Virus record (IMG/VR): IMGVR_UViG_3300045988_131721 | Coordinates: 72,795-136,794 of that record | Source of the DNA: a virus | Direction: 5' to 3' (one strand) | Length of the DNA: 64,000 bases | Shown here: positions 12,173-46,047 of the stretch, in pieces | How positions within the stretch are numbered: position 1 is the stretch's first letter | Layout: each line of letters begins with the position of its first letter | The notes under the pieces: model-generated | The model's input: only the letters and a program-made list of their open reading frames with translations | Told to the model about the DNA's origin: nothing | Database searches by the model: none | Made by a program: the position numbers and the translations under genes

Positions 12173-12190
12173 ATTAATCAACTCCTTTAT

Positions 12191-16646: not shown

Positions 16647-17036
16647 CTATTTACCAAAACAAGTTAAAAATACTGTAAAACTACCTTCTAATTTTATATT
16701 TGAATCCAAATGTCTTAATCCTATCTTTACTTTATCTTTTCCAGATGGGATAGCTACAACATTTAAATTGCTATAAATGTATTTAGTAGACTCACAACTA
16801 CAAGCTACTGTAAGTATCACGTTAGGAAACGACTTCTTTAATGTAATTTCTTGTGTTATATTTTCCGAACTACCATCAGCAGTTAATGAAATAGTCATAC
16901 ATTCTACTATCATTCCATTTATGTTATTGTAAATATAATCGTCACCTAATGTAACCGAACTTGAATTATCTCCAACTGTAGTTGTTCCTAATGATTGGAA
17001 TGCACCATCAATTTTGCCTAATATTGATAAATTCAT
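16647..17036 (-). CDS. hypothetical tail-module protein
   Basis: 129-aa ORF with an AGGAGGTGG SD. Confidence 0.55.
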   Translation of the reverse strand: MNLSILGKIDGAFQSLGTTTVGDNSSSVTLGDDYIYNNINGMIVECMTISLTADGSSENITQEITLKKSFPNVILTVACSCESTKYIYSNLNVVAIPSGKDKVKIGLRHLDSNIKLEGSFTVFLTCFGK

Positions 17037-17047
17037 TAAACCACCTC

Positions 17048-18817
17048 CTAAAATCCATTTTTGTGATTAGCTCTTACATATGTTGGATAATCGAAATAGC
17101 AAGTATCAAAATCTACGTCTACTCCACCGTAACCACTTAATTTCTTATATCCACCTTGCCATAATTTAACATCAGTTCTAGTCCAAGTACAAGCTGAACT
17201 CCATTGAGCCACCCATATGTGGTCAGTATATTTTACATTATTCCAATTTACATAATTTGTTGCCCATGAGTTATTAGTATAAATTCCTGCCATATATCCT
17301 GCATCATTTATTATTTGACAAAAAGCGTTCATACAATTTGTCAATACGGTTTTGCCAGGATTCCCTAATTTATCAACTAAGTCATTTTCTTGGTCAAAGA
17401 ATATTGGGAATTCAAATGTTTGAGAATACTTATTTAATTGTTGAACCACCCAATTTGCTTCTATTTTAACCTTTTCAACTGTATTTGCATATGAGAAAAA
17501 ATACACACCTACAGGTATTTTGTTTTCAACACATCCTTTTAAATATTCTTCAAATTTAGGGTCTATTATAGGTTGTCCACCTTTTCTGCTACCATAACCT
17601 ATTCTAAGTATTGCAAAGTTAGTTTCGCCATAAGTTTTAATTTTAGCGAAGTCAAGATTTCCTTGATATTTAGATATATCTACACCCATACAAGGCACTG
17701 TAAATCCTGTATTGCCACCTACTTCTCCCGTTCCTCCTGCATCAACTGTTATAGTGGATATAGTTACATATGAGGGATTAGCATTTATATACCCTATACT
17801 ATTATTGTAACTTACTTTAACCCATGAAGTATTTGTATAGGTTTCAAGTATTGGTAATGTATATCCATTAGGTATAGCTCCTAATACTGGATATTTTACA
17901 CCCATACCACTTCTAACGTTTAAAGCATTACAAATTACTTTTGCAACTTTAGTAGTAGAAGATAATAATAATCCCACATACGCTTTACCTGTATTTTCTC
18001 CTATTGCAGTAGCAGTAGGTTGGTCTTTACAGTTTATAGCGAATACGGGAAGACTGTGTGAAGAACTTAATCCTAAAGCATCCTTACTTATTGTTCCTGT
18101 TATTTGGAATACCTTACCATCTATATCTTTTCCAGTGTCTGCAAATTTAACATATTGTCCAACATATCTTTGGTCGGTAGTTAAACATACATTTTTATCT
18201 GGATATTTATCACTTGTAAATTCTGAATCTATATAATAACCCATTATAGTTGAGTCTAAAGTTAAATTAGATACCCATACAGTTTTATCTTCAGCAGGTG
18301 GTTTTATAGGTGTTGGATTACTCGGAACATCTTTACCGTCGTCGTCATCGTCTTTAGGTTCTTCATAAATTCTTATCCATAATTTATATTTTGGGTCATT
18401 AGGAATATCACTACCAATATATATTTCTTCTTCTGTAAAATGTTCAAACATATATTTAAATATATCATTAAGAGAATCGAATTTAGTTCCTTCAATTAAA
18501 CCTTCTTTATAACTGCATAATTCTTTTCTCATAGTTTCAATTAATTCATCTTTAGTCATATCGTTATTATCTAATAAAGCTCCTATGCCTTTTACTTCAT
18601 ACGCAACTTTAATTTCCGTATCTAACTCTTCAAAAGAAGAAATTATCAAACATTCTCTTTCTTCGTCATATTCTGGTTTTACTCCGTTTATTTTTTTAAA
18701 CCCATATCTTTTCATTAAATCTTCATTTGTATTAAAATTAGTAATTAATATCCCATCCGAAGTTTTGTAATTTATCGGAGCAAATATTAATTTTCCGTTA
18801 ATAATTTTACCGTACAT
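17048..18817 (-). CDS. tail-module GH25 muramidase with SH3-like domain
   Basis: The C-terminal GVDISKYQGNLDFAKIK...FAILRIGYG...VGVYFFSYA pattern matches glycoside hydrolase family 25. The central ALNVRSG......G.......W.KV is SH3-like. Confidence 0.8.
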   Translation of the reverse strand: MYGKIINGKLIFAPINYKTSDGILITNFNTNEDLMKRYGFKKINGVKPEYDEERECLIISSFEELDTEIKVAYEVKGIGALLDNNDMTKDELIETMRKELCSYKEGLIEGTKFDSLNDIFKYMFEHFTEEEIYIGSDIPNDPKYKLWIRIYEEPKDDDDDGKDVPSNPTPIKPPAEDKTVWVSNLTLDSTIMGYYIDSEFTSDKYPDKNVCLTTDQRYVGQYVKFADTGKDIDGKVFQITGTISKDALGLSSSHSLPVFAINCKDQPTATAIGENTGKAYVGLLLSSTTKVAKVICNALNVRSGMGVKYPVLGAIPNGYTLPILETYTNTSWVKVSYNNSIGYINANPSYVTISTITVDAGGTGEVGGNTGFTVPCMGVDISKYQGNLDFAKIKTYGETNFAILRIGYGSRKGGQPIIDPKFEEYLKGCVENKIPVGVYFFSYANTVEKVKIEANWVVQQLNKYSQTFEFPIFFDQENDLVDKLGNPGKTVLTNCMNAFCQIINDAGYMAGIYTNNSWATNYVNWNNVKYTDHIWVAQWSSACTWTRTDVKLWQGGYKKLSGYGGVDVDFDTCYFDYPTYVRANHKNGF

Positions 18818-18842
18818 ATTATACCTCCTTTATTAACTTTTA

Positions 18843-18878
18843 GCAAAAATAAAAGAAGAGGAAAATAATCCTCTTCTT
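18843..18878 (-). terminator. intrinsic terminator upstream of the GH25 gene
   Basis: Leftward sense AAGAAGAGGA-TTATTT-TCCTCTTCTT followed by TTATTTTT. Confidence 0.65.
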
Positions 18879-18960
18879 AAAATAGAAATAATTAAATTTT
18901 TGAATAACAACATGGTTGTTTTTATAGACATTAATATTATGTGTTTTTTATTTAATTTAG

Positions 18961-18986
18961 ATACACAATATTTTTAAATTGTGTAT
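18961..18986. repeat. post-stop palindromic site ATACACAAT-ATTTTTAA-ATTGTGTAT
   Basis: 9-bp perfect arms. Abuts the stop codon of 18986..20767. Confidence 0.8.
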
Positions 18987-20767
18987 TACAAATTCTCTAA
19001 AAATTTCAAAATTTTCGGAGCTATTAGTTCTTGATGTGCTAAAGAGTTTGGATGAGTTTGGTCGTGAAAATATTTATCGGTGAAAGTTTTATTCCACACA
19101 AAAAGTCCACTTTCTCCATTTAAATCATAAACTTTTATAGAAAATCTCTTACCTATTTTTATCATTTCATCTGCAATTTTTCTAATATTATTATCATAAT
19201 CATATCTATAAGTAGTGTTTGTTGGAGTTATAAGTGCTATCTTTGCGAATGGAAACTTTTTAGTTAGTTGTTCACAACAATAATGAATTGCCCCACAGAC
19301 AGTATCTTTTGTAGTGTCACCACATTGACCTATACTAAAACTTCCACTATCATTTATACCTGCTAAAATTGTAATATAATCATATCCTTCATTTCCTGTC
19401 AAAGTGTCTATTCTATCACATATATTTTCACTTGCATTGTAAGTTTTTATAAATCCAGTACCAGCTTTTGCTTTATCAATAACGATTATCCCAGTTTCAT
19501 CAGCAATATAACTATGATACTTCCTTACACCCTCGCTCGAACTATCGCTTGTACTATCTCCTATTACGCACCACTTTTTGCCCTTTAATTTATTATCTAC
19601 TCTTTTTAATTGTTCGGAAATATTTTTAGCATACTTTTCAGTTGAAAAATTTATACTTCCTTCTAAAGAATAAGAAACATATGATGTCGGTAATGTTCTA
19701 CTCATTATCATATAAGTATCTTTTAAATTCATGTTTAAAGACATTCTTAAAAATTTTGCTCTAGAAGGAGCAACCGCATTAGTAGTCCCGTATTCCTTTA
19801 ATGAAATATATTCTTTATTAGCATCGTACCATGCACCATTCCAATTATTTGTAAAGTAATAAGTTTTTCCACTCTCTACAGGAATGAAATCACTTATACA
19901 ACCAACATCACTAGCTACAGGAGCACCATTAGTTTCAATTATATAATTATCGGTTGTTTTAGTTTTATCAAATAAGTTGTTATCATCTTCAATTTTCAGA
20001 AATGTTGTTTTATTCGGTGTAATATTATTATTTATAGTGTCTTTAATTTTTTCACTAAATTTAGTTGTAAACTCAATACTATATTCGCCAAAACCAACAT
20101 AATTTTGTGGTAATACATTCCCTTCAACAAGCATTACTGTATCTATATTAAGCATATTAATATTTTGTCTATAAAATTTTGCATTTGCAGGTGATGTAAA
20201 AGTTGATTCACCGTAAGGTTTATCTGATATATAAGTCTTTCCACTATCGAACCAAGCTCCACTCCAATTGCTAGAATAAGTATAAATTGTATTGCCTTTT
20301 ACTGGTATATAGTCGCTAATACAACCATTTGTATTTTCAACTAATTTATTTTTTTCTAAAATATAACCTTGATTTGAAATAGAATTTTTATTAAAAAGAT
20401 TCATAATTGATTTTTTAATAAATGTTAAATTGTTATAATCAACACAATCATTCATTAGTTTATCTTTTGAGATTGTATTATCTCCAACTATGGCATTTAT
20501 GGACGCATTACCGGCGATTTGTTGTAAAAATTCATCTGTCATATAAGTTTGGTCAAATTTGCCTAAATTCTTGTTAATTTGATATATTGAAATATCAGTT
20601 GTATTTTTATCAAGCTTTTCATTCGCAATATCTTTACATTGTGAATTTACCCCATCTAAATTTTCTCTTAATGTTTTACCATCTTCACATAATACATTAT
20701 CATCAGTACTCCAAAACGAAACAATATTTCCATTCTCATCACTATATTTATTCTTCATATACTTCAT
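18986..20767 (-). CDS. tail fibre with tandem carbohydrate-binding-like repeats and C-terminal SGNH/GDSL esterase
   Basis: Block I CVIGDSTSD and the DQTHPN catalytic D..H are present. There are two roughly 105-aa tandem repeats (NLF.K...GCISD(Y/F)IPV..G..Y......W.GAW(F/Y)D). The N-terminal NSQCKDIAN anchor motif is shared with other fibre genes. Confidence 0.75.
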   Translation of the reverse strand: MKYMKNKYSDENGNIVSFWSTDDNVLCEDGKTLRENLDGVNSQCKDIANEKLDKNTTDISIYQINKNLGKFDQTYMTDEFLQQIAGNASINAIVGDNTISKDKLMNDCVDYNNLTFIKKSIMNLFNKNSISNQGYILEKNKLVENTNGCISDYIPVKGNTIYTYSSNWSGAWFDSGKTYISDKPYGESTFTSPANAKFYRQNINMLNIDTVMLVEGNVLPQNYVGFGEYSIEFTTKFSEKIKDTINNNITPNKTTFLKIEDDNNLFDKTKTTDNYIIETNGAPVASDVGCISDFIPVESGKTYYFTNNWNGAWYDANKEYISLKEYGTTNAVAPSRAKFLRMSLNMNLKDTYMIMSRTLPTSYVSYSLEGSINFSTEKYAKNISEQLKRVDNKLKGKKWCVIGDSTSDSSSEGVRKYHSYIADETGIIVIDKAKAGTGFIKTYNASENICDRIDTLTGNEGYDYITILAGINDSGSFSIGQCGDTTKDTVCGAIHYCCEQLTKKFPFAKIALITPTNTTYRYDYDNNIRKIADEMIKIGKRFSIKVYDLNGESGLFVWNKTFTDKYFHDQTHPNSLAHQELIAPKILKFLENL

Positions 20768-35822: not shown

Positions 35823-36266
35823 CTATATAACATCTAAACCTTGCTCTATTAAATATCTTTTTAATTCAGTTGGTATTTGTTGAGCTATTTTAACTTGTGA
35901 ATCTGGTATAATCGTTGTTGGAGGATAATAAGCAACCGTAGAATCACTTTTAAAACTCCAAACTTTACCTGCTTCCCAACCTATAATTGGAAAGAAATGT
36001 TCTCCCGTTAATACACTTGTCCAATCTCCATTATCTTGAAATTCTACTACAGCACAATTCATATCAATACTCGATATTTGTGCTATTTCTCCCATTTGTC
36101 CTGTACGTTCATATACAGATGGTTCATGGTCAGCATATATTTGTTCATTTACTTCTCGTTGCATTATCTCTACCATTTTATTTGCCATAGGTGTCATAGC
36201 AGTAGAAACAACGGATTTAATATAATTGACTGCACTTTCAATATCATTTACAACCAAATTAATCAC
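35823..36266 (-). CDS. tail assembly protein (possible T-part of a chaperone pair or HK97 gp10-like)
   Basis: Overlaps the upstream ORF by 8 nt. Its frame opens only 9 nt before its GTG, across an AAAAAAG run. Confidence 0.4.
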   Translation of the reverse strand: MINLVVNDIESAVNYIKSVVSTAMTPMANKMVEIMQREVNEQIYADHEPSVYERTGQMGEIAQISSIDMNCAVVEFQDNGDWTSVLTGEHFFPIIGWEAGKVWSFKSDSTVAYYPPTTIIPDSQVKIAQQIPTELKRYLIEQGLDVI

Positions 36267-36723
36267 CTTTTTTCATTTCTTGTATTTCCTCTTCCAATTT
36301 TTCACATTGTTTATTTAATATTTCTAATTTTTCAGCCTCTAATAATATTCTTTTGCTTAAAGTTAATGAAGTCATATTTGCTAATAGATTTTGTTTTTCT
36401 AACATTACTTCTATAACAATTTCACTTACTATTTCGTCTACATCTTGTGCAATAAACATTAATTCTTTTTTACCTTTATTTATTGATTCTATTAAATCTT
36501 CGTCTAATTCTAAATCAGTAGCCAATTCAAATGCTTCCTTGTATATAAGTTCCATTAATGCTTTTTCTTCTAATCCTTGTTCTAGTCCTTTAGATATTTT
36601 TTCTTTTAATTCATTTCTATTCTCACCAAATATATTATAAACTAAAACAGTTTCTATTTCGTTATTTACTTCCACATCATATGAACTTCTAATCATATCT
36701 AATGTTAAATCACTTAATTTCAT
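36259..36723 (-). CDS. tail assembly chaperone-like acidic protein
   Basis: 154-aa acidic helical protein just upstream of the tape measure. Ends ...EMKKGD on an A6G run. Confidence 0.5.
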   Translation of the reverse strand: MKLSDLTLDMIRSSYDVEVNNEIETVLVYNIFGENRNELKEKISKGLEQGLEEKALMELIYKEAFELATDLELDEDLIESINKGKKELMFIAQDVDEIVSEIVIEVMLEKQNLLANMTSLTLSKRILLEAEKLEILNKQCEKLEEEIQEMKKGD

Positions 36724-36739
36724 TCCTTAATCTCCCTTC

Positions 36740-36753
36740 TTTATTAATTATTT
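36740..36753 (-). repeat. AT-box (perfect)
   Basis: Abuts the GAAGGGAG SD of 36259..36723. Confidence 0.8.
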
Positions 36754-36794
36754 TTAATATCTTTCCTCTCTTTATTCATCTTTTCATACAACGA

Positions 36795-36824
36795 AATAGG
36801 AGAAGAAATTAATCCTCTCCTATT
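36795..36824 (-). terminator. imperfect hairpin downstream of the tailspike gene (weak terminator)
   Basis: AATAGGAGA../..TCTCCTATT. Homologous to the terminator at 18843-18878 but lacks a clear U-run. Confidence 0.35.
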
Positions 36825-36910
36825 TCCACACATTATACAAATAGTAATTAGAGTTAATACACAGCTGGTTTTGTGTACGTTTATATTATATGATTTTTTT
36901 TAATTTATAT

Positions 36911-36931
36911 ACATAATATTTTTAAATAGAT
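36911..36931. repeat. degenerate post-stop copy of the palindromic site (ACATAATATTTTTAAATAGAT)
   Basis: Overlaps the stop of 36922..38649. The flanking 3' sequence is homologous to 18879-18990. Confidence 0.55.
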
Positions 36932-38649
36932 ATTACATTATTATAATATCTATAATCTTTTTCAGCATCTGTAAATTTTATATTTATATCACTATTATTT
37001 TCTATACAGTTTATACAAGATATATTATTCAATATAATATCGGGTGTATATGAACCTGTGGTTACATATCCTATCATACTAGAAGTTCTTTTATTTCCAA
37101 TATTTTCTATTATACCATTTGTCATTAAAAAATGAGGTGAATTAGTTTTCGTATACTTAACCCCGTTTTTTGCATTCCATCCAAAATGATATAAATTATT
37201 AACCATTATTATACTATTATATAAATCTACAGAATATATATCTTCACTTATAATATTCATGCCATAATTATTAGTACCACTATAATCAATAATAGAATTA
37301 ATAAATTGTAATTTTTTACTCCCTGCAACTAATCTAAAAGTACAATATTTGTTAATTGAATTAAGTATTCTTAAGGAACATTTTTTAAATATTATAGAAT
37401 TATTAACATAAGAATAGTTTTGGGTTATTTTCTCAAAACTATCCAGGATGAAATTACAATCTATAAATTCACATTTTGAATTATCATTAAATTGTAATAA
37501 TCTAGCATATGTAGCATTATTACCAACAGCTTCTATATCACAGTTTATAAATCTACAATCAGATGAATTATGCAAATAAAATAAGGTACTTGTAATAATT
37601 CCATTTATTTTAGTATTTTTTACAATTATATTATTTACGGCACCGTCATTAGACCCACATTTTATTATGTTTGACCCTGTACCATTCATACGTAAATCGT
37701 TATTATCAATTACTACATTATTACTATTGTATCCTAAATATATAGCATGACCATATATATCTGTATTAGTTTGAGTTGTAATTTTTGTATTTAATATTTT
37801 TAAATTATTACAATTGTCACTATATATACCAAAATACGCTTCATCTATAACTAAATCAGATAAAATTGTATTATCTGCTTTCATATTAGAGACAAGAAAA
37901 CTTAAGTTTTTTGATTTACAGTTTTTTACGCAATTATTTAAAATTTTATTAGTTGTATTACTCACTATTGTTATTCCACAAATATTAGACACTATCGCAC
38001 TTGCGTCAAATTCTTTTAATGTATTTTTATATTCTAATTGACTGTAAAAATTTAATTCTTCTATACAGCAATTATCATTATTTATTGCAAATACTGTAAA
38101 ACTTGTTTCCTTTGGATTTATATATATATTTGCTCCATTTCCTATAATCTTTGTATTTTTAGGTAGTATAATAGTATTATCTATTAAATAATTACCCTTT
38201 TCAAAAATTATTACTACATTTTCTTTATTATCTAATGTGGCTTTTATTTTATCAGAACAATCTGATAAATTATAAGTTTTAGTAGTTTCATCATAACTAA
38301 CTTGACTGGATGGTTTCACTCCAAATTTTGATAAATTGATATAAAGTTTATTTATTCCATCTATCTCATTCACAATATCTTTATATTGTGCATTAACTTC
38401 ATTTATACTGCCTATTAATGTTTTATCCTGTGTAGTTAGTGTATCATACTCATTGTCTTTTACACCTTCCATAGATGTCTCGTCTTTAACTAAGGTTACT
38501 TCATTATCTTTTAAGGTTTGAATATCTGTTTTCATATTATTATTTTTTGTAGTTTGACTCTCTCCTGTACTGTCTACAACTAAATCTGGTGAGGTATAAG
38601 GATAATTAAATCCGTCTTTACCTTTTCTAGTTTTTATATTTTTTGACAT
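36922..38649 (-). CDS. tailspike with right-handed beta-helix (pectate-lyase-like) domain
   Basis: The N-terminal GKDGFNYPYTSPDLVVD and ...TLIGSINEVNAQYKDIVNE anchor is shared with 43763 and 40424. The body has repetitive N/I/G-rich turns typical of parallel beta-helices. The likely start is ATG 38649 after GAGGTGAT. Confidence 0.6.
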   Translation of the reverse strand: MSKNIKTRKGKDGFNYPYTSPDLVVDSTGESQTTKNNNMKTDIQTLKDNEVTLVKDETSMEGVKDNEYDTLTTQDKTLIGSINEVNAQYKDIVNEIDGINKLYINLSKFGVKPSSQVSYDETTKTYNLSDCSDKIKATLDNKENVVIIFEKGNYLIDNTIILPKNTKIIGNGANIYINPKETSFTVFAINNDNCCIEELNFYSQLEYKNTLKEFDASAIVSNICGITIVSNTTNKILNNCVKNCKSKNLSFLVSNMKADNTILSDLVIDEAYFGIYSDNCNNLKILNTKITTQTNTDIYGHAIYLGYNSNNVVIDNNDLRMNGTGSNIIKCGSNDGAVNNIIVKNTKINGIITSTLFYLHNSSDCRFINCDIEAVGNNATYARLLQFNDNSKCEFIDCNFILDSFEKITQNYSYVNNSIIFKKCSLRILNSINKYCTFRLVAGSKKLQFINSIIDYSGTNNYGMNIISEDIYSVDLYNSIIMVNNLYHFGWNAKNGVKYTKTNSPHFLMTNGIIENIGNKRTSSMIGYVTTGSYTPDIILNNISCINCIENNSDINIKFTDAEKDYRYYNNVISI

Positions 38650-38701
38650 TTTTTTTATCACCTCATTTTTAATTTTTTATTATGCAATTAATTCACATTA
38701 A

Positions 38702-38727
38702 GTTCACAATATTTTTAAATTGTGAAC
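38702..38727. repeat. post-stop palindromic site GTTCACAAT-ATTTTTAA-ATTGTGAAC
   Basis: 9-bp perfect arms. Overlaps the last base of the stop of 38727..40355. Confidence 0.8.
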
Positions 38728-40355
38728 TAAATTTCTATATTATTAAAATTCCAAATGATATTATCTCCATATGTTGTTCCTATGTTAAAAGGGATTCCTT
38801 TAATATAACTGTTATATGCTACAACTGCATCAGTTTTTGCACTGAATACCATTTTTGTACAACCACTTTTATTCGTAGTCCAATTATTTTTAAATATTCT
38901 ATAATTTTCACTATCTACCCTAAAATCTAAAGTTGTATCTTGAAATTCATTATTAAACATTGCAATATTTCTACTTTTTACAGATATTACTTGTTTAACT
39001 TGCCCGTTATTACAAATAAATTTACAATTTTTAACTATATGACCGTGAATATGTTGCCCCCCATCTTCCCAGTCTATATGTGACGCAGGGTCATAATAAC
39101 CGCAATTTACAAATTCACAACCGTCTAATATTATATTATTACCACCTTGAGGACTCATACCAGTAGACATAGTTTCTTGAAATTTACAATTTTTAAATGT
39201 AACATCTTCCAACTTACCAACTGCAAAAATGTGTACAATACCACCAAAATCGGGGTCACTCGCAGTAGGAAGGTAGTTTTGATAAAACTCTATTTTACAA
39301 TATTTTGCGGTAGAAGGAAATTCATAATATTCAAATTGTAAACAATTATTAAGTTTAGAAACGAATTGTTTATTTTCATCGAAGAAATATATATTATATA
39401 TTCTGCCAACAACATAGGCATATCCGCCATAACCTTGCATACAACCTACACCAAATGTGTTAGTATTATAATTATGTAAAGAAGAAATGTCTATATAATC
39501 CTTACATCTAAACCTAGTTGAAATACTATCATTATTTTTACCAATATCTGTATACCCACCCATTTCAGTATTACTCAATTTAAAAGGTATACGTGTATAT
39601 AATTTATATCCTAATCCAACATTAAAACCAGGAGAATATGAAAATTCACAATTCACAATATTAACATTTTTACTTCCAGTAAGTTCTAAAGTTTGTTCCT
39701 GTTCAATATGATATTTTTTACTACTTATATAATTCTCGGCATAAAATTTACCATTTAAAACATTTAAATTTTCAATATTTTCAATATTAAACATTTTATA
39801 TGCATATTCATTACCTGCTCTAATACCATGCCAATCCGCTATGTTTTTATTTTTTCTAAATTCTAATTGTATAATAGAATTATTCCAATCAATTGTCATA
39901 TTACTTGGATAAGAAATACTTCCCACATCGCCTTGAACATTATAAGTTCCAGTAGGGAAAACAACTTTATCATAATTATTTTCTGACGCATATTTAAAAA
40001 CATTTATAATACCTTGTGTATTAGCTATACCACTATCACTTTTACCAGTATTATTTAAATTGTAAGTATTTAAATCAACATTCAACACTTTTAAATTATC
40101 CGAATTTATATCGGGACGTTCTACCACATTTATTTCTATTTGTTTTGAAATATTTTGTCCTACATATTTTACAGTTATTGTGGCTGTTCCAATAGAATTT
40201 GCAAAGAGCACACCAAATTGACAAGATATAACAGAAGTATTAGAGGATGTTATAGAAACACTATTATTATCACACCTCATATCCCATTTAAAAGGATTTT
40301 CTGATTCATCTTGCAATCCTACTGCCCATAAAACATATTCATCACCAATATACAT
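38727..40355 (-). CDS. beta-helix (pectate-lyase-like) depolymerase-type protein with N-terminal Ig-like domain
   Basis: Contains LNNTGKSD...NYDKVVFPTGTYNV..., like the Pectate_lyase_3 N-terminal cap, and repeated N.....C.F turns. No SD is recognisable before ATG 40355. Confidence 0.55.
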   Translation of the reverse strand: MYIGDEYVLWAVGLQDESENPFKWDMRCDNNSVSITSSNTSVISCQFGVLFANSIGTATITVKYVGQNISKQIEINVVERPDINSDNLKVLNVDLNTYNLNNTGKSDSGIANTQGIINVFKYASENNYDKVVFPTGTYNVQGDVGSISYPSNMTIDWNNSIIQLEFRKNKNIADWHGIRAGNEYAYKMFNIENIENLNVLNGKFYAENYISSKKYHIEQEQTLELTGSKNVNIVNCEFSYSPGFNVGLGYKLYTRIPFKLSNTEMGGYTDIGKNNDSISTRFRCKDYIDISSLHNYNTNTFGVGCMQGYGGYAYVVGRIYNIYFFDENKQFVSKLNNCLQFEYYEFPSTAKYCKIEFYQNYLPTASDPDFGGIVHIFAVGKLEDVTFKNCKFQETMSTGMSPQGGNNIILDGCEFVNCGYYDPASHIDWEDGGQHIHGHIVKNCKFICNNGQVKQVISVKSRNIAMFNNEFQDTTLDFRVDSENYRIFKNNWTTNKSGCTKMVFSAKTDAVVAYNSYIKGIPFNIGTTYGDNIIWNFNNIEI

Positions 40356-40423
40356 TTGAGATATAGGGTTAACTATTAATATTTCATTGATGTTCCTATT
40401 CTGTTTTTTTGCTAACTCTTTAG

Positions 40424-42343
40424 TTAGAGATACTCCTCATCTGTACTAGAAATTTCTTTACCTACTACCACAGGAATGGTTTTAGTAAGATTCTTTGCAA
40501 CAATATTAACATTAGAAGTACCATCTTTTAATGCAGTAATACTATTATCATCATTAATTTTTATTATATCGTCAGTATTTGTTTTTTCTAAAGATACACT
40601 ATCTGAATAATTTATTACTGGTGATGTAGAATATGGTATAGAATATGTTTCACCAACACCCATATTCAATGCATCTATTGAATTTACACTTTCAACATTT
40701 AACGCCTCAAATATAACATCTGTAGTATAACTATTTCCAACGTTTGTGGTTTTTATAGTTACAGTAAATTCTTTATCTGACAATCTTGTTACATTTCCAA
40801 GACTATCTATTGTTGCATTATTTTTATCACATATAAACTCTATATCATAAAAAGACTTATCTCCAAAAGGTAATGTAACAGGATGTAATAAAACAGTAGA
40901 ATTAACAGCTATATTATATGAAGTAACCTTAATTTCATTACTATCAGTAAGAAAGTTTCCATCAACTTTATAATTTCCTATACCAGTAATAGAATTATCA
41001 CAATATGGAGTAAAAGTATATTTTTTATTATTAACAATTATAAAACCGTTAATAGCATTTTTATATAATGGTTGAATATTATAAACCCAAGTATAATTAT
41101 TTGTTTTTTGAAAACCTAATTTAATGAATTTAGTTCCTTCTTTAAGGCACATAGAACGTTTCTTTTCATTCCAAGGTAGATAAACAACATTATATCTATC
41201 ACCAGTAATAGCCCCCAATGATTTTTTATTTTCATCATAACAAATAATTGATAAAACAAATCCCTTATATCCCGCAGATATAACAATTTCTTCTGAATTA
41301 ACTTCAATATATTCACTTGTAGAACAAGATGTAGTTACACTATTACCATAAGAAAAATCTACTTGGGTAGCGTGCGACCTTTGTAAAGTTAAAACATTAC
41401 CATCTATAATAGTTTCATTTTGTATACTTGCCCCATTTGCATTTATAATTATATCTCCAGTAACAGAATTAATTGTAGCTGTTCTCTCATATTTATCATA
41501 AACTTCATTAGTAATATCTTTACCACCCATACTAATAGAAAGTGTATTTGGTTCATACTCCAAAATAGGTTCTAATTTAGCTACATATTTAGTATTTGGA
41601 GTAATAGACTTATTAGTATTACTATTTGTATAATTAGTTAAATTGTTTGTTATAGAATAACTTGTAGGTTGAACAATTTCTGTACATTTTACGGTTATAA
41701 CAATTTTACCGGTAACTTTAGGTATATTAATATTTCCATTATTATACACACTATCGGTAATATTTGTACCACCCATAGTAATAGTAACACTATTAATAGA
41801 ATATCCTTCACTAGCAGTAATAGTTGCAGTATAAGATTGATTCTCCTCTATTTCGGTTGCGTTATTATTATTACTTGCATTAGATAGTGTATTTGTTATA
41901 GTATATTTTGTTACGACAGGTTCAACAGGTGTAGTACCTCCAATAGGTATTTCTGCTATTACTTTGTTTCCACACTTTATTTTATAAGAATTAGTGGTTT
42001 GTTCTGTGGTAAATAAGTTCGCAATATCTTTATATTGCGAATTAACTTCATTAATAGAACCTATTAATGTTTTATCCTGTGTAGTTAATGAGGGATATTC
42101 GTTATCTTTTATTCCCTCCATAGATGTTTCATCTTCAATTAAATTTATTGCATTATCTTTTAAAGTTTGAATATCAGCTTTTATTGCAGTAGTATCTGAG
42201 CTATTTTTAGCTTCTTCTATTTTCTTTTCTAGTTCTTGTTTAGCACTTTTGCCAGTTCCGTCATAGTCAACATTCTCTAAATCAACTAATTTAAAGTCGC
42301 CATTATTCTTTTGAGTAAGTTTTCCTATTATTTCAATACCCAT
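40424..42343 (-). CDS. tail fibre with two Ig-like 75-aa repeats and C-terminal Big_2-like domain
   Basis: The N-terminal ADIQTLKDN...TLIGSINEVNSQYKDIAN anchor is shared with 36922. It has repeats KYTITN...ITMGGTNIT...VTGKIVIT, as in 14356..16635. Confidence 0.6.
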   Translation of the reverse strand: MGIEIIGKLTQKNNGDFKLVDLENVDYDGTGKSAKQELEKKIEEAKNSSDTTAIKADIQTLKDNAINLIEDETSMEGIKDNEYPSLTTQDKTLIGSINEVNSQYKDIANLFTTEQTTNSYKIKCGNKVIAEIPIGGTTPVEPVVTKYTITNTLSNASNNNNATEIEENQSYTATITASEGYSINSVTITMGGTNITDSVYNNGNINIPKVTGKIVITVKCTEIVQPTSYSITNNLTNYTNSNTNKSITPNTKYVAKLEPILEYEPNTLSISMGGKDITNEVYDKYERTATINSVTGDIIINANGASIQNETIIDGNVLTLQRSHATQVDFSYGNSVTTSCSTSEYIEVNSEEIVISAGYKGFVLSIICYDENKKSLGAITGDRYNVVYLPWNEKKRSMCLKEGTKFIKLGFQKTNNYTWVYNIQPLYKNAINGFIIVNNKKYTFTPYCDNSITGIGNYKVDGNFLTDSNEIKVTSYNIAVNSTVLLHPVTLPFGDKSFYDIEFICDKNNATIDSLGNVTRLSDKEFTVTIKTTNVGNSYTTDVIFEALNVESVNSIDALNMGVGETYSIPYSTSPVINYSDSVSLEKTNTDDIIKINDDNSITALKDGTSNVNIVAKNLTKTIPVVVGKEISSTDEEYL

Positions 42344-42357
42344 ACTATTTACCTCCT

Positions 42358-43656
42358 TTATTTTATAGTTATATTAGTAGTCCCTAAATTTGCATTATCT
42401 GATTTATATATATCATAGTTTTCCGCATAGTTATCGCTGTTAGTAAAGTTTACAGTTGCCACCTTGCTAAATCCTCCGTCAAAACCACCAACGTTGAAAC
42501 TACAAGTACCTAATCTACTAGGAACACAATAGAATATATATTCTCCAGCTCCTGCATTTACTGTTATGGTTCTATTCTTTGAATTAGATAATTGTTTTGT
42601 TAATCCACTAATCAAAACACTATCATAAGTTGTTGTAGTAGATTTTCCATAGTAAACACCATTAGCAAATGTAATAGTAGCAGTCTTTGATTTTTGAACA
42701 CCACTATTAGATATTCCAGCTAAAGTATAAGTAGTTGTTGTAGTAACTGCTGTGAATGTTTTCGTTCTTAATGTATTCTCAACAGTTGCATTATTAATAG
42801 TTTGACTTTTTATTGTACTATGGGTATAGTTCCATGTTAATTTAGGACTAACAGTACTACCCATTTGTGATATATTTGGTGTTACTGAAAAGGATGAAAT
42901 ATCAAAAGGATTTTGTATATCCCATATTTTAGCATCAAGTTCAATTTGACTCTCTTGTACTTTCTTTATTTTATTATTTACTTCATTTATCCCACCAGTA
43001 ATTGTTTTTTCGTCGGTATTTAAAAATTCATCATTTTTCTTTTGATAATTTGTTAAATCTACAGTTCCTCCACCGATTCCAGAATTAACATCTTCTCTTA
43101 ACTGATTTATTGCACCTACTATAGTTTTGTTATCACCAACTAAATTTTCATCTCGTTTCATCTGAATTTCATTTTTATTTATTCCGTTGGTTATTTCTTT
43201 AACATCTTTTATTAATTTTTCTAATATAGGTAGATTTTTATCATTTTTTATTTTTTTATTTAACTTAGCAGTTATATTTGGTTTAACTACATAATCAAAT
43301 TCTTCAGATGTAAAACATTTTAATTCATTTTCTATTGTTCCAGAAACTCTTATTTCACATGAATATTTACCAACTATATCAAAATAATCTGTAGTTAAAT
43401 CAACTTGATATAATAAATCTTCTTTAGATATTAATGTTGCGTCTAAAGGTTTAAATTCATCTGTCTCTGGTTTTAATACTGCAAATTCAACGATTAAATC
43501 ATCTGGTATGGTTTTATCTTCATCAGTACAAATTAATTTTATAAAAATATTACATATATTTAAATCTGTATTATAGAAAAATATAGTTTTATCGGATTTA
43601 ACTTTTGTATTTTTTAAATCTACGGTAATTAAATAATCTTTATCTATATTAATCAT
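42358..43656 (-). CDS. BppU-N-like baseplate/fibre adaptor protein
   Basis: The N-terminus is paralogous to 14356 and 20782. Contains the NKTIVGAINQL and EKTITGGINEV fibre motifs. Confidence 0.5.
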   Translation of the reverse strand: MINIDKDYLITVDLKNTKVKSDKTIFFYNTDLNICNIFIKLICTDEDKTIPDDLIVEFAVLKPETDEFKPLDATLISKEDLLYQVDLTTDYFDIVGKYSCEIRVSGTIENELKCFTSEEFDYVVKPNITAKLNKKIKNDKNLPILEKLIKDVKEITNGINKNEIQMKRDENLVGDNKTIVGAINQLREDVNSGIGGGTVDLTNYQKKNDEFLNTDEKTITGGINEVNNKIKKVQESQIELDAKIWDIQNPFDISSFSVTPNISQMGSTVSPKLTWNYTHSTIKSQTINNATVENTLRTKTFTAVTTTTTYTLAGISNSGVQKSKTATITFANGVYYGKSTTTTYDSVLISGLTKQLSNSKNRTITVNAGAGEYIFYCVPSRLGTCSFNVGGFDGGFSKVATVNFTNSDNYAENYDIYKSDNANLGTTNITIK

Positions 43657-43683
43657 TTAATCATCCTCCTTTATTAATTTTTA

Positions 43684-43715
43684 TATAAAAAGAGTGGTAA
43701 ATTAACACCACTCTT
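43684..43715 (-). terminator. intrinsic terminator after tailspike 43763..45379
   Basis: Leftward AAGAGTGGT-GTTAATTT-ACCACTCTT followed by TTTATAT. Confidence 0.6.
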
Positions 43716-43737
43716 ACAATTTCATTTCGATACTAAG

Positions 43738-43762
43738 TACACAATATTTTTAAATTGCGAAC
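43738..43762. repeat. post-stop palindromic site TACACAATATTTTTAAATTGCGAAC
   Basis: Abuts the stop of 43763..45379. Matches at 22 of 24 positions the copy inside the same gene at 45237-45260. Confidence 0.8.
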
Positions 43763-45379
43763 TTAAGACAATAAAATAAAATCATTACTCGCTATTCCTG
43801 TTTCAGAAATTCTTAAATATATTTTTTTATCACAACAAACTAGATTTCCAATTTTACTCCCAACTGTATTTGGTAATTCATTAACTTTACCAACATTAAC
43901 AAAATTATTAATTATTGTAAAACTTCCTTCATCTGTAATTTTACCACTTCTATTTCCAATATTCATTGATGTATATTCTGAATTACTTCTTATTCTATGT
44001 GTCATAGCTCCATTACTTGCACAAGTAACTTTAGTTCCTTTGCAATAATTGATATCTATTCCCGTACCACCATCACAATTTATATAACCTATTATAGTAT
44101 CCTCTACTTTGCTTTCTGTTCCATTACTTAAATCTTCTATTTTTATTCCACATCCTGTAATATTTGTTGCGTATATTTTTCTAATCTCATTTGCTACAGG
44201 ATGACCCGTATTGGTAGATTGTAATACGATTATATTTCTTGCATCTTTAGCACTTTCTGTTGTATCATCATTATCTGTTCCCGTTAGATATTGAATACAG
44301 TCAAAAATATTATTTTTACAATTTCCTTTTACACTTATACAATCTTGATTATCATTTATGACCCTTTCTAAAACAACATCTCTAAATCTATTTCCTATTA
44401 TTTGCATTTTATTTCCATCTAATATAATATGTCTAGTCTTTATAAAAGCTATATGAAGATAGTCAAAATACAGTTGACCAACTTCTCTTTTTTGATTACT
44501 TCCCCCAACAACTAATCCATAATCACAATACTGTATATCAACTTTTCCATTGAATATTAATCTAGCAGTACCTCTAATTTCAATTCCAGTTGTAAAATAA
44601 TTATCTGTATTATTTACACCTCTTATTGTTATTCCAAGTGGAAATAATATATTTTCGGGTTTTTCTACATCATCTATTAACAATCCCGCTGAAACAATCC
44701 CATCACAACTTAATTCCCCATACATATTTATTATAGCTTGGTTGCATTTATCATCTAAAACCCAAGGTTCAGTTAATTTCCACACCCACCAATTTATATC
44801 ATTATCACTTAATTGTTTTGCCCCCTCTTGATTAGGGTATGGTTTAGGCACAATAAGCTCATAGTTTCTCCAACTTTCCAATGTTTGTTTTATTTTATTC
44901 CATTTTATATTAAAACTATCACCAGAATACCAACTTAAAACAATTGGAGTGGAAGATAGATGGATATCTGCAATACCCTCACCATCAAAAATAGTATAAT
45001 TTCCAGCAAAAATTTTTCCATTTATTATAACTTTTTTATTAGTAGCAATTTTTATTTTAGCACCCATATTAAATTTAAAAGATATATTGGAAGGGATTGT
45101 AATAGTTTCGCTTATCAAATAAGTTCCTTTTGGTAAAGTTACCAAAATTTCATCTGAAAACTTATTTATTATATTTTCAAGAACTTTACTATTATCTAAA
45201 CCGTTTTTATCCCCACCATAGTCAATAAAATTTAGATTCACAATATCTTTAAATTGCGAATCAATTTCTTCAAATTTCTTTGTATTTGATTTTCCGTTTT
45301 TATCTATAACTAAATCTGGGGAAGTGTATGGATAAGAGTAACCATCATTCCCTTCTCTGACTTTCACTTTATCGCCCAT
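43763..45379 (-). CDS. tailspike, pectate-lyase superfamily-like beta-helix
   Basis: The N-terminal GNDGYSYPYTSPDLVID...SQFKDIVN anchor is present. FIDYGGDKNGLDNSKVLENII...LPKGTYLI resembles the Pectate_lyase_3 cap. Confidence 0.65.
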   Translation of the reverse strand: MGDKVKVREGNDGYSYPYTSPDLVIDKNGKSNTKKFEEIDSQFKDIVNLNFIDYGGDKNGLDNSKVLENIINKFSDEILVTLPKGTYLISETITIPSNISFKFNMGAKIKIATNKKVIINGKIFAGNYTIFDGEGIADIHLSSTPIVLSWYSGDSFNIKWNKIKQTLESWRNYELIVPKPYPNQEGAKQLSDNDINWWVWKLTEPWVLDDKCNQAIINMYGELSCDGIVSAGLLIDDVEKPENILFPLGITIRGVNNTDNYFTTGIEIRGTARLIFNGKVDIQYCDYGLVVGGSNQKREVGQLYFDYLHIAFIKTRHIILDGNKMQIIGNRFRDVVLERVINDNQDCISVKGNCKNNIFDCIQYLTGTDNDDTTESAKDARNIIVLQSTNTGHPVANEIRKIYATNITGCGIKIEDLSNGTESKVEDTIIGYINCDGGTGIDINYCKGTKVTCASNGAMTHRIRSNSEYTSMNIGNRSGKITDEGSFTIINNFVNVGKVNELPNTVGSKIGNLVCCDKKIYLRISETGIASNDFILLS

Positions 45380-45484
45380 TTAATTATCCTCCTTTTGTAT
45401 ATTTTATTGGAGGTGTTTATTGCCCCCATATAATTTATATACTTTCGTAAAACCATTAATCCAAATACTCTTACAAAAGTATAT

Positions 45485-45515
45485 AAAAAAATATGGGGAC
45501 ATTTCTGCCCCCATA
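45485..45515 (-). terminator. strong intrinsic terminator after the major tail protein gene
   Basis: Leftward TATGGGG-GCAGAAATGT-CCCCATA followed by TTTTTTT. Confidence 0.75.
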
Positions 45516-45523
45516 AGTTAAAA

Positions 45524-45537
45524 TTTATTAATTATTT
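45524..45537 (-). repeat. AT-box (perfect)
   Basis: Begins right after the stop codon of 45538..46047 and is followed by the terminator. Confidence 0.8.
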
Positions 45538-46047
45538 TTACACACTTGTTTTATCTTCTTCAAATGTCATAAAATCTCCATTTGTATCAGTACCTATATC
45601 AAAAGTTACAGAATAAGTTTGTAAATCTAATGAACTTGTACCAAAGTCTTCAGTTATTTGTGGAGTACAATTAGCTATTGTTGCATTTAATATTTTTCTT
45701 GTACCGTCTGGGAATTTTAATTTCATTTTTCCTGTATAAGTATAAGTAGTAGATGGAGAATCACCTATATGTACTTTACCTTCTGCATCTTTTGTAGCTC
45801 CTAAAGTAATTAAAAACATATCAAAATTCATAACTTCCATTTCTGCTGTGAAAGTCATAGCTTTATTTGCTTTTAATGTTATTTTATTTTTACCATCAGC
45901 TCTAGCATTTAAAGTATCTTCTGATTGACCTAAATTAAATGCATTTACATAATCTAACGCTACGTCTTTTTCTGTTCCAGTTTCACCGTTTGGATGAAGT
46001 TTACCTTGCATAGCACCTTCTATTACGAATAAAGTTTCTTGTGCCAT
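45538..46047 (-). CDS. major tail (tube) protein
   Basis: 169 aa with a beta-rich composition and a strong SD, followed by a strong terminator. Lies downstream of the head-tail connector genes. Confidence 0.55.
   Translation of the reverse strand: MAQETLFVIEGAMQGKLHPNGETGTEKDVALDYVNAFNLGQSEDTLNARADGKNKITLKANKAMTFTAEMEVMNFDMFLITLGATKDAEGKVHIGDSPSTTYTYTGKMKLKFPDGTRKILNATIANCTPQITEDFGTSSLDLQTYSVTFDIGTDTNGDFMTFEEDKTSV

Follow-up and report, generated by a model that had tools for sequence, protein, structure and literature searches.

A near-invariant 24-base sequence as the border of exchangeable receptor-binding modules in a Clostridia phage and about 100 related viral contigs

Here, we describe a 24-base sequence (24-mer) that brackets the receptor-binding modules of a Clostridia phage in two copies, the upstream one translated and the downstream one non-coding with its own TAG. 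Homology between related genomes breaks exactly at this sequence, making it a natural cut-and-paste boundary for host-range modules. We favor, with a probability of about 0.62, the reading that the 24-mer is a module-boundary (linker) sequence for receptor-binding cassettes that are exchanged by general homologous or short-homology recombination; the linker is probably used via ordinary homology and not by a dedicated recombinase. The window is the whole 64-kb stretch of DNA that was analyzed.

Copies of the 24-mer and the cassettes between them

The window contains eight copies of the 24-mer, all direct repeats, of which seven have at most 3 mismatches and one is decayed. A consensus search of the 64 kb allowing ≤3 mismatches found 7 copies against 0.01 expected, and 0 of 100 shuffles reached 7. 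Six copies had been listed in an earlier note on this DNA, and all are present at coordinates that were exact or off by 1-2 nt; two at gene F (18986..20767) had been missed (20622-20645 and 18962-18985). The sequence is a dyad with an asymmetric centre, arranged 8-8-8, or 11-6-11 counting the flanking AG/CT. The features are:

45237..45260, minus strand: coding-type site of fibre gene A (43763..45379), SQFKDIVN, residues ~40-47
43762..45236, minus strand: cassette 1, variable C-terminal module of gene A
43734..43765, minus strand: post-stop-type site after gene A, core 43738-43761, stop TAA 43763-43765
42042..43733, minus strand: conserved backbone, gene C anchor and gene B (42358..43656)
42018..42041, minus strand: coding-type site of fibre gene C (40424..42343), SQYKDIAN, residues ~101-108
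38727..42017, minus strand: cassette 2, variable part of gene C and gene D (38727..40355, beta-helix)
38699..38730, minus strand: post-stop-type site after gene D, core 38703-38726, abutting stop TAG 38727-38729
38369..38392, minus strand: coding-type site of fibre gene E (36922..38661), AQYKDIVN, residues ~90-97
36934..38368, minus strand: cassette 3, pectate-lyase-like module of gene E, Pfam PF12708
36910..36933, minus strand: decayed post-stop-type site after gene E, own TAA 36922-36924
20622..20645, minus strand: coding-type site of fibre gene F, SQCKDIAN, residues ~41-48
18986..20621, minus strand: cassette 4, GDSL esterase module of gene F, Pfam PF13472
18962..18985, minus strand: post-stop-type site after gene F, TACACAAT...ATTGTGTA, abutted by stop TAA

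In gene A, the coding site sits between a 39-aa anchor and the module, and the backbone block from 45236/45237 is 95-99% identical to four relatives (L028, L030, L112, L027). As previously claimed, this site and the copy at 43738-43761 are identical at 22 of 24 positions. None of the fetched relatives has a cassette 1 homologue of ≥150 bp, though both flanks of the cassette are 92-99% identical; its module also occurs behind a BppU-type N-terminus in P0002. The post-stop site has mirrored flanks (TAAG/CTTA), the backbone block ending at 43761-43781 is 92-93% identical to L112, L114, L022 and L110, and the real terminator lies downstream of the site, at 43715-43690. The adjoining backbone (42042..43733) matches five relatives at 92-93% identity over its whole length between the two sites and takes no part in exchange.

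The coding site of gene C has the perfect 10-bp arms described earlier, and backbone block 42017-43766 begins here. A copy had been proposed after the stop of each fibre gene, which describes three intact sites and a decayed one and fails for gene C, whose cassette continues through gene D up to the copy at 38703; the 68-nt gap between these two ORFs has neither a 24-mer nor a clear ribosome-binding site. A relative of gene D was found only in L004 (77% identical), with homology beginning at 38702. The arms of the site after gene D (AGTTCACAAT/ATTGTGAACT) are 10 bp once the flanking AG/CT is counted. Its RNA folds at -12.3 kcal/mol (z -5.2) and, having no U-tract, is not an intrinsic terminator.

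Homology of the gene E anchor to L110, L048 and L112 (91-93%) begins at 38366-38374, and no homologue of cassette 3 was found in relatives. The copy after gene E, earlier called degenerate, exists at 36910-36933 with its centre intact and two substitutions in the 3' arm; its 5' arm has been supplanted by the end of gene E, and its own TAA is the stop codon. Alignment with L025, L112, L022 and L110 shows it to be orthologous to canonical post-stop copies of relatives, and it contains the end of backbone block 36000-36927, whose identity is 94.5-96.6% in eight relatives and ~75% in L009. At gene F, block 17000-18981 (96% identical to L108) likewise ends inside the post-stop site, and ~80 nt downstream of the site there is a distinct terminator-like hairpin. 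On contigs of 136 kb and 41 kb, the module of cassette 4 is found at ≥90% identity on N-termini giving proteins of 580, 590, 593, 653, 703 and 707 aa.

Homology breaks and module exchange among relatives

The comparison set consisted of 109 IMG/VR loci (~100 related viral contigs), most of them retrieved via the 24-mer itself. Anchored on the 24-mer, 152 unique sites were compared for shared flanks (≥85% identity), and, counted in pairs that do not equal independent events, coding copies shared the left flank only in 99, the right only in 68 and both in 7, while post-stop copies shared the right flank only in 112 and the left only in 12. Ungapped homology ended 0-2 nt past the site edge in 73/74 left-sharing pairs and 0-4 nt past it in 59/70 right-sharing pairs. 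In a control comparison, the coding site itself gave 5 pairs sharing both flanks, 91 left only and 63 right only; an anchor point 150 nt upstream gave 76, 0 and 3, respectively, and one 150 nt downstream gave 39 pairs sharing both flanks and no one-sided pairs.

Within the window, blocks that are 92-99% identical to relatives stop at 18981, 36927, 38366-38369, 42017/18, 43761-43781 and 45236/37. The suggestion that the sites are borders of exchangeable receptor-binding cassettes is borne out, since in relatives homology ends at the site edge, different C-terminal modules follow the 24-mer, and different anchors precede it. Between them, 23 anchor clusters and 39 module clusters form 61 combinations, with one anchor joined to 9 modules and one module to 9 anchors, spanning ~136-kb SPβ-like and ~40-kb phages (contig sizes of ~27 to ~140 kb). 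Module swaps appear to be frequent, as unrelated modules are found in relatives with 98-99% identical backbone, and the roughly 24 bases (up to 28-32 with flanks) are often the sole DNA in common between phages of one host group that are unrelated otherwise. What is exchanged is the C-terminal portion of a tail-fibre gene, encoding an enzyme or fibre part, and in some cases one to three further ORFs as well. Polymorphisms at site positions 2 and 4 track the left flank, position 9 does so partly (0.70), and those from 25 onward track the right flank; this linkage indicates that crossovers are spread within the site.

Two classes of site and constraint on the DNA

Copies of the 24-mer are either in frame and coding (...AAAGAT...), translated as the last anchor residues ([S/A/T]Q[F/Y/C]KDI[A/V]N), or non-coding and post-stop (...AAAAAT...), with a built-in T(T)AG at the 5' side. 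Site position 14 marks the class, with G in coding copies (GAT = Asp) and A in post-stop copies, and no exceptions in 171 unique contexts. Since TAG, TAAG or TAA stands immediately 5' of the post-stop site in ~80% of cases, it is counted as part of the element. The claim that non-coding copies abut stop codons applies to all three intact post-stop copies of the window and to only 18 of 57 cases across relatives; in another 14 the real stop is found 4-12 nt upstream, and in 22 the distance is 22-55 nt. These variable remnants of 4-55 nt, which separate the real stop from the site in most relatives, argue for an untidy assembly of cassettes by homology plus illegitimate joining.

Codon usage in coding copies departs from background, with TCG for Ser in 56/62 (background 3%), GCG for Ala in 74/75 (6%), ATT for Ile in 87/89 (34%) and AAC for Asn in 45/59 (17%), a pattern repeated in 10 loci retrieved through protein similarity. 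Codon 7 also keeps its third-position G through residue changes (GCG, GTG, ACG, GAG) at a background of 27% G+C. Retention of the rare codons TCG and GCG indicates that the constraint acts on the nucleotide sequence. These data and the shifted-anchor control already contradict a reading of the 24-mer as the by-product of a peptide motif, with no significance at the nucleotide level and with post-stop copies as independent, decaying relics of truncated fibre genes, which we regard as very improbable. INEVNxQxKDIxN is indeed part of a motif common in Gram-positive phage fibres, with diverged versions in gene B, and one locus (L046) has an anchor remnant before a post-stop-type site. However, breakpoints cluster at the site, most post-stop copies lack a preceding anchor remnant, and all of them share both the G-to-A change and the arms, and so are not independent decay products. 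Truncated-fibre relics, an alternative also raised in the earlier note, probably explain the single origin of the post-stop class, given that TTAG plus the site reads Val-Ser-Ser-Gln... in some anchors, but not its present uniform, conserved state.

The central G/A difference would split the 24-bp identity into 13 + 10 bp, which should reduce harmful recombination between coding and post-stop copies within one genome and leave like-with-like exchange unaffected. Anchor-only genes joined to a post-stop (A-type) site and then backbone, in L101 (940-1110) and L046 (~4197-4350), are natural coding x post-stop deletion products, in keeping with the earlier idea of a deletion-prone system.

We consider it unlikely that the 24-mer is kept for another function, as an operator or as an RNA hairpin for 3'-end stabilization, pausing or processing, and serves as a crossover point only because it is shared. 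Sense-strand RNA at the sites folds at -7 to -12 kcal/mol (z -3.1 to -5.2 versus shuffles), a post-stop location is typical of 3' hairpins, similar palindromes follow chromosomal genes in two Clostridium genomes, and the promoter-early stem-loops (PeSLs) of T4-type phages act as accidental recombination substrates (PMC2839356). Yet the arms do not covary (score 0.095, shuffle mean 0.095), pair 2-23 is unpaired in 45/77 post-stop copies and variants of pair 4-21 assort independently, giving no support to a selected hairpin. No U-tract follows the sites, a terminator-like hairpin with a T-run being found 20-80 nt further downstream instead, and isolated half-sites occur at chance level. Nor does any function readily suggest itself that would be required at a domain boundary within an ORF as well as behind a stop codon, in fibre genes only.

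Possible routes of exchange and comparable systems

If the 24-mer is a linker used by homology, two crossovers, in the upstream and the downstream pair of copies, would replace a module precisely and in frame, with the anchor and the downstream backbone left untouched. Exchange would proceed by general homologous or short-homology recombination between co-infecting phages and resident prophages, and candidate functions are host RecA and the RecU resolvase (PF03838, E 1.6e-26) and metallophosphatase exonuclease encoded in the window. The site may be uniform because each successful swap would copy it and because lineages losing it could not renew host range. Several points weigh against homology. 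It does not need a palindrome, yet 8-bp arms are kept in both classes, which is very unlikely by chance, and 24 bp is at the lower limit for efficient homologous recombination, yet swaps appear frequent; published estimates of minimal homology stand at about 23-27 bp for E. coli, with longer values for B. subtilis. Recognition by a sequence-specific protein could be another reason for the near-invariance across many samples, and inspection covered 64 kb of the 136.8-kb genome, on the phage side only.

A true cassette system, in which the 24-mer is the target of a dimeric phage or host enzyme that excises and integrates cassettes or cuts to start exchange, seems doubtful to us. Candidate enzymes would be a tyrosine/Xer-like or serine recombinase, an HUH/IS200-like enzyme acting on a hairpin with a 5' TTAG, or a homodimeric homing-type nuclease. 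In geometry, the 8-8-8 / 11-6-11 dyad corresponds to simple recombinase core sites, the near-invariance includes the spacer, TTAG is conserved at the 5' side, homology edges are base-sharp, and anchor-only 'empty' forms occur. A 327-aa tyrosine recombinase lies 0.4-5 kb from a post-stop site in seven loci (L046, L029, L076, L002, L050, L034, L105), but such integrases occupy the usual temperate-phage position. The 24-mer matches a Clostridia dif site at 17/28 positions (Kono et al., PMC3025954 supplement, which lists dif of C. perfringens and C. beijerinckii as 'not determined'), but without the conserved ATAA-N6-TTAT core, and the likeness is statistically unconvincing.

The earlier note saw no recombinase, and none was found in the 64-kb window of the 136.8-kb genome by tblastn with Hin or the L046 tyrosine integrase, nor any serine or tyrosine recombinase in PHROGs/Pfam scans of 40 window ORFs, a part of all ORFs. 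The eight direct repeats bracket essential structural genes, including those for 2381-aa and 1328-aa tail proteins, so that the genome would not survive an active reaction of the resolvase type. The would-be spacer contains the polymorphic position 9, whose linkage to the left flank is only partial, and therefore exchange does not occur at one point; in addition, stop-to-site spacers are untidy and no silent cassette arrays were found. The site-specific logic of integrons or of Gin and Cin, proposed earlier, is thus not upheld, crossovers being scattered within a site that is, unlike attC, short and sequence-invariant.

Gin/Cin/Min and Rci shufflons also have a crossover site in a fibre gene at the constant/variable junction and switch host range, but they use inverted sites, modules of opposite orientation in one genome and a neighbouring gene for an invertase or Rci, whereas here all copies are direct repeats, the alternative modules are found in other genomes and the window has no such gene. 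Integrons share an imperfect palindrome at or near the cargo stop, a related site at the fusion with a constant part, and 'empty' forms. Sites of the attC type measure 57-141 bp, and their structure, not their sequence, is conserved; the 24-mer, at 24-32 bp, is sequence-invariant without covariation, and the present system has no IntI and no silent arrays, and joins its cargo to an anchor in frame. Recombination at conserved motifs of adhesin genes is said to have been described by Tétart et al. in 1998 for the His-box motifs of T-even gp37/gp38, and collagen-like repeats reportedly flank VR2 of Streptococcus thermophilus phage receptor-binding genes (work of Duplessis and Moineau in 2001). 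In both, as here, short conserved coding motifs flank the host-range segment and recombination there swaps specificity, but those motifs, which are repetitive or degenerate and have no palindromic structure, lie in coding sequence on both sides, whereas the downstream partner of the 24-mer is non-coding with a built-in stop, and its nucleotide identity defies codon bias.

The PeSL cassettes of T4-type phages phi1/RB49 (Arbiol et al. 2010, PMC2839356) resemble the 24-mer as short repeated stem-loop motifs that begin at the upstream gene's stop codon, surround the most plastic genes, and bound insertions, deletions and replacements between close relatives; recombination between nearby copies yields deletions or circles. 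A PeSL is, however, an intergenic regulatory unit with a strong sigma-70 promoter and a working terminator, neither signature of which is found in the 24-mer, and is variable in sequence and arrangement and flanks non-essential ORFans, whereas the 24-mer is nearly invariant, carries a receptor-binding module as cargo, and has one of its two copies translated inside a gene. The same protein logic, a conserved adapter, a sharp similarity breakpoint and then diverse enzymatic domains, is described for tailspikes with exchangeable C-terminal domains in Klebsiella, Acinetobacter, Ackermannviridae and E. coli phages (bioRxiv 10.64898/2026.02.20.706991; see also PMC10408124, PMC8432352, PMC11414711). 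Breakpoints there are defined at the protein level, and the searched text of the bioRxiv article mentions no palindrome, junction motif or homologous recombination. The 24-mer is a natural border, set in the DNA itself, for swapping host-range modules in this Clostridia phage and ~100 related viral contigs.

Site copies, their two flavours and their constraint

The window has a G+C content of 27% and carries its structural genes on the minus strand, and the site reads TTCRCAAT-WTAAARAT-ATTGYGAA in gene sense. The consensus of the earlier note (up to 3 mismatches) finds 7 copies in the 64-kb window against 0.01 expected by chance, with a decayed copy at 36910-36933 making eight in all. Isolated half-sites (TTCRCAAT) show no excess in the window, with 5 outside full sites and about 7 expected.

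Copies of the site in the window
45237, 42018, 38369 and 20622, minus strand: coding copies, in frame in fibre genes, encoding [S/A]Q[F/Y/C]KDI[A/V]N
43738, 38703, 18962 and 36910 (decayed), minus strand: post-stop copies, behind stop codons

The six copies of the earlier note are all present, but its list is incomplete: it lacks the pair 20622/18962, which lies on either side of the GDSL-esterase module in gene 18986..20767. All copies (8/8) are co-directional with their genes, as had been said of the fibre units, and are direct repeats. Four cassettes (exchangeable C-terminal modules) are each bracketed by one coding and one post-stop copy, with the same pattern in relatives. A post-stop copy had been described for each fibre unit; this holds for the bracketed cassettes and not for gene 40424..42343, which has none behind it and whose cassette runs on through gene 38727..40355 without an intervening site. 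In the region 40344-40440, the 68 nt between these two genes contain neither a fibre site nor a clear ribosome-binding site, and both ends resemble Ig-like (Big_2-type) repeats; from sequence, the two are possibly one fibre gene split by mutation. A relative of gene 38727..40355 (locus L004) is likewise a separate ORF of 532 aa.

Related loci (109 from IMG/VR) were collected with the 24-mer (70), with its 18-mer core, or by protein similarity (10). Because most were retrieved through the site itself, conservation of its core is partly a product of collection, which leaves the flank analyses, controls and protein-retrieved set unaffected. Position 14 divides all copies into two classes with zero exceptions, G where the site is translated (GAT, Asp) and A where it is non-coding. 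TAG, TAAG or TAA stands directly 5' of ~80% of non-coding copies, even where the real stop is upstream (in 57 cases, abutting in 18/57, 4-12 nt upstream in 14/57 and 22-55 nt upstream in 22/57). Since T(T)AG is found there even with the real stop further away, it is part of the element, and the opposite side often has CTAA or CTTA as its mirror image, which extends the arms to 10-12 bp. TTAG plus site is the same string that some anchors (shared N-terminal fibre parts) read as Val-Ser-Ser-Gln, which suggests that the non-coding flavour arose once, out of a coding copy.

Codon use in coding copies of the site and in the background of the same loci
Codon: site; background
TCG (Ser): 56/62; 3%
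GCG (Ala): 74/75; 6%
ATT (Ile): 87/89; 34%
AAC (Asn): 45/59; 17%

The codon pattern is identical in kind in the ten loci obtained by protein similarity, and the third-position G of codon 7 is retained despite residue change (GCG, ACG, GAG). Judged from codon choice and base pairing, the constraint on the site acts on DNA and not on structure. Plain RNA hairpins, the alternative named in the earlier note, are predicted to fold at -7 to -12 kcal/mol. No compensatory change was found in the arms: the R/Y variants of pair 4-21 vary independently of each other, and 45/77 post-stop copies have pair 2-23 unpaired. Covariation score and percent paired are both equal to their means in shuffled data, the observed score being reached by 257/500 shuffles and the observed percentage by 194/500. 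The post-stop copies are followed by CTTAGT, CTTAAT or TCTAAA and not by a U-tract, and Rfam gives zero matches in the 64-kb window. A sense-strand G·U bias, considered as a sign of an RNA hairpin, was rejected: post-stop copies have more G·T than A·C, coding copies have more A·C than G·T, and the numbers are compatible with independence. A simple terminator scan gives loose consensus matches at coding copies 45237 and 42018 and, on the opposite strand, at 38703. None of the three has an uninterrupted T-run, and an intrinsic terminator was rejected; separate terminator-like hairpins with a T-run lie 20-80 nt beyond sites (43715-43690, flagged by the scan, and ~80 nt past 18962, seen in the sequence).

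Joints between anchors and modules in related loci

Comparison of 146-nt flanks at 152 unique sites shows that most related pairs share homology on one side of the site only.

Pairs of sites sharing flanks (pair counts are not independent events)
Copies: left flank only; right flank only; both
Coding: 99; 68; 7
Post-stop: 12; 112; 3

Ungapped homology ends 0-2 nt past the site in 73/74 left-sharing pairs and 0-4 nt before it in 59/70 right-sharing pairs. In a control subset, 91 pairs share the left flank only, 63 the right only and 5 both when anchored at the site; with the anchor point shifted 150 nt upstream, both flanks are shared by 76 pairs, the left alone by 0 and the right alone by 3, and with a 150-nt downstream shift both are shared by 39 pairs and a single flank by none. 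As read from these alignments, mosaic breakpoints coincide with the site and not with neighbouring sequence. In the window itself, blocks 92-99% identical to relatives stop at 18981, 36927, 38366-38369, 42017/18, 43761-43781 and 45236/37, and the four cassettes between those blocks are without a close counterpart in those same relatives.

Clustering yields 23 anchor types and 39 module types in 61 combinations, with a single module found behind 9 different anchors, and one module cluster at 90% identity spans proteins of 580 to 707 aa. The contigs that carry the site range from ~27-50 kb to ~134-140 kb. Different C-terminal modules do follow the site in relatives, as the earlier note had proposed to check, and its adverse case, sites lying away from module boundaries, is not what the homology edges and controls show. 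The anchor of gene 36922-38661 is itself chimeric, its first ~35 residues resembling the anchor of gene 43763-45379 and residues ~40-98 that of gene 40424-42343; therefore recombination also occurs inside anchors.

Recombination also occurs between the coding and post-stop flavours, and two related loci hold natural examples of the deletion junctions that had been predicted. L101 carries an intact 56-aa anchor-only gene (940-1110, …EIDSQFKNIAY…) followed by the usual downstream backbone (DNA between cassettes), and L046 carries a frameshifted anchor joined to a post-stop-type site. The prophage region around the L101 remnant is decaying, and a 437-aa transposase-like ORF (1580-2893, ISL3-like by eye) lies ~0.5 kb downstream of it.

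Recombinases, relatives and neighbouring genes

No serine recombinase was matched in the 64-kb window by tblastn with Hin, which has one match only among the loci, in L002. Likewise, no tyrosine recombinase was found in the window by tblastn with the integrase of L046 or by PHROGs/Pfam searches of 40 ORFs, in agreement with the earlier note, which saw no recombinase there. The search yielded only three HNH endonucleases, a RecU resolvase, a metallophosphatase nuclease and a sigma factor.

HNH endonuclease genes, proteins beside them, and lysin-type genes
1002-1784, 6826-7548 and 10402-11190, plus strand: three paralogous HNH endonuclease genes (phrog_953, E 1e-55 to 1e-64)
2310-2726, 6008-6751 and 8425-9165, plus strand: three proteins with a recurring N-terminal domain (phrog_17705/7488/3523)
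17048-18817, minus strand: 589-aa lysin-type gene (uncharacterised 290-aa N-terminus, SH3, GH25), directly downstream of a fibre cassette
11342-12181, minus strand: amidase-type endolysin gene, near the holin

The HNH genes are interspersed among nucleotide-metabolism genes (NrdD/NrdG, RecU, dUTPase) and look like free-standing homing endonucleases by sequence; no link between them and the fibre sites was found. The recurring domain, a repeated module, adjoins the HNH genes and is fused to dUTPase in one copy. RecU and RuvC cleavage consensuses match the site arms only partially and were dropped. The 589-aa lysin may be a virion-associated lysin.

A 327-aa tyrosine recombinase occurs in related loci (L046 2847-4167; L029 1349-2665; L076 1821-2801; L120 1630-2613), unusually placed beside the fibre cluster and not after the lysis genes. 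It lies ~0.4 kb from a post-stop site in L046, L029 and L076, and is paired in L046 and L029 with a divergent 66-74-aa HTH gene; L046 has no further site copy beyond it.

Only the terminase, 41% identical to those of SPβ and phiCD211, places the phage near known phages. Among GenBank phages, no match was returned by megablast of 36000-46000 or by tblastn of gene 40424..42343, and gene 43763..45379 gave five weak matches only, to Xanthomonas/Erwinia jumbo phages (26-28% identity over 37-45% of its length); within these searches, the fibre genes are in no isolated phage. A PDB sequence search with the fibres of genes 40424..42343 and 36922..38661 gave no matches. A protein search with the anchor of gene 40424..42343 returned mostly fragments. 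The record P0038 (locus L120), which stops close to the end of its contig and shows a shift in composition, is uninformative.

A scan of species genomes for the site returned only 3 Clostridium/Clostridiales contigs, two of which carry it as non-phage intergenic repeats.

The palindrome or near copies in non-phage chromosomal DNA
L071, 4250-4273 and 4823-4846
L072, 41-64, 6062-6085 and 6248-6271

These two loci, from Clostridium guangxiense and a Clostridium MAG, have the palindromes after putP- and fruK-like genes and beside a yjdF riboswitch, within longer repeated inverted-repeat elements (…ATTGCGAAGTAAYAST…), perhaps a repeat family of the host to which the phage site is related. Short repeats in tandem (CCAAGTAAATAC / GCTAAGTAAATAC) stand directly 3' of the post-stop site in many ~40-kb contigs (L064 9397-9440, L018 1262-1300, L067, L068), and may be a regulatory array in the backbone.

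Mode of exchange and its meaning for Clostridia phages

Conserved motifs around an adhesin segment are already known from the His boxes of T-even phages and the collagen-like repeats of S. thermophilus phages, and the arrangement of homology-driven exchange at boundary motifs, a short conserved sequence on both sides of a variable segment, is also found here. Integron logic, suggested in the earlier note, does not fit: no IntI-type tyrosine recombinase was found in the 64-kb window of the 136.8-kb genome (tblastn with the L046 integrase, PHROGs/Pfam scans of 40 ORFs), and whereas attC is conserved in structure and variable in sequence, with RYYYAAC/GTTRRRY cores, the site here is 24-32 bp, near-invariant and without covariation. 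By inspection, the sequence beside its arms (GTTAGTT or GTTAATT) is a misfit to GTTRRRY. No silent-cassette arrays were seen: none of the right flanks of post-stop copies matches a module seen after a coding copy, and downstream of the 91 post-stop copies every open frame ends within 52 codons except in L085 and L092, where a read-through frame of ~100 codons bears no relation to fibre modules. The Gin/Cin comparison fails as well: in Gin/Cin/Hin/Min, inverted crossover sites flank alternative modules, whereas here 8/8 copies are direct and the Hin search found no invertase in the window. The string AGTTCGCAATT-TAAAAA-TATTGCGAACT has the 11-6-11 geometry of dif and matches 17/28 positions of a Clostridia dif site (possibly not the host's), but the conserved inner ATAA-N6-TTAT(G) arms of Xer/dif sites (28 bp, 11-6-11) are absent from the phage site. 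On the defining features tested, membership among integrons, invertases, shufflons and terminators fails, and the dif/Xer resemblance is kept only as a lead.

By analogy, the nearest described system is the PeSL cassette of T4-type phages: its short stem-loop motifs start from the preceding gene's stop codon, mark the limits of replacements between genomes that are nearly identical, and give rise to mini-circles (PMC2839356). PeSLs, however, are promoter-terminator units in intergenic DNA (PMC2839356), and the phage site is not such a unit. The adapter-plus-variable-domain architecture of receptor-binding proteins is well described at the protein level (for example bioRxiv 10.64898/2026.02.20.706991), and no description of this site was found in the literature searched. 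New here are a discrete, almost invariant element, its use both in coding and in non-coding form, the latter with a stop of its own, and its presence in very different phage types.

Within the site, positions 2 and 4 travel with the left flank, position 9 does so at only 0.70, and positions 25 onward travel with the right flank (few markers, non-independent pairs, recurrent mutation possible). The partial linkage of position 9 suggests crossovers inside the site that are not all at one place. General, homology-guided recombination is favoured for module exchange because crossovers appear to be spread, no serine or tyrosine recombinase is seen in the window, the repeats are direct, silent cassettes are lacking and the stop-to-site spacers are ragged across relatives. 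Two crossovers, one per like pair of sites, would take place between phages that share a cell as residents or by co-infection. The fixed central G/A mismatch would split identity into 13 + 10 bp and so limit deletions between coding and post-stop copies. Dyad symmetry is not accounted for by this homology model and remains unexplained; mainly because of it, a sequence-specific enzyme is kept as a live alternative. The palindrome would then be the recognition site of a dedicated recombinase or dimeric nuclease, possibly host-encoded or in the other half of the phage genome, and receptor-binding modules would be true mobile cassettes that are cut out, form circles and join in frame to any anchor, with unrelated Clostridia phages sharing them. 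We consider this improbable; the eight direct repeats span essential tail genes, so a resolvase-type reaction would kill the phage. If true, it would amount to an integron-like host-range cassette system in viruses. Over-representation and strand skew of TTCGCAAT/ATTGCGAA in the host would mean a Chi-like signal.

These loci give a base-resolution view of host-range modules moving among phages that are unrelated but belong to one host group. One sequence of ~24 bp, kept unchanged against codon bias and serving at one end as codons and at the other as a non-coding stop-plus-site, makes the module a portable unit. For annotators, mini-genes that contain an anchor alone and fibre ORFs that are split are to be read, in these phages, as products of module exchange, and for engineering, the joints (...SQ[F/Y]KDIAN / module ... 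TAG / site) are naturally validated splice points for chimeric receptor-binding proteins of Clostridia phages. The site is also a clean test bed for short-homology versus site-specific recombination, and a manageable system in which to ask if phages evolve sequences that mainly promote exchange (selection for evolvability).
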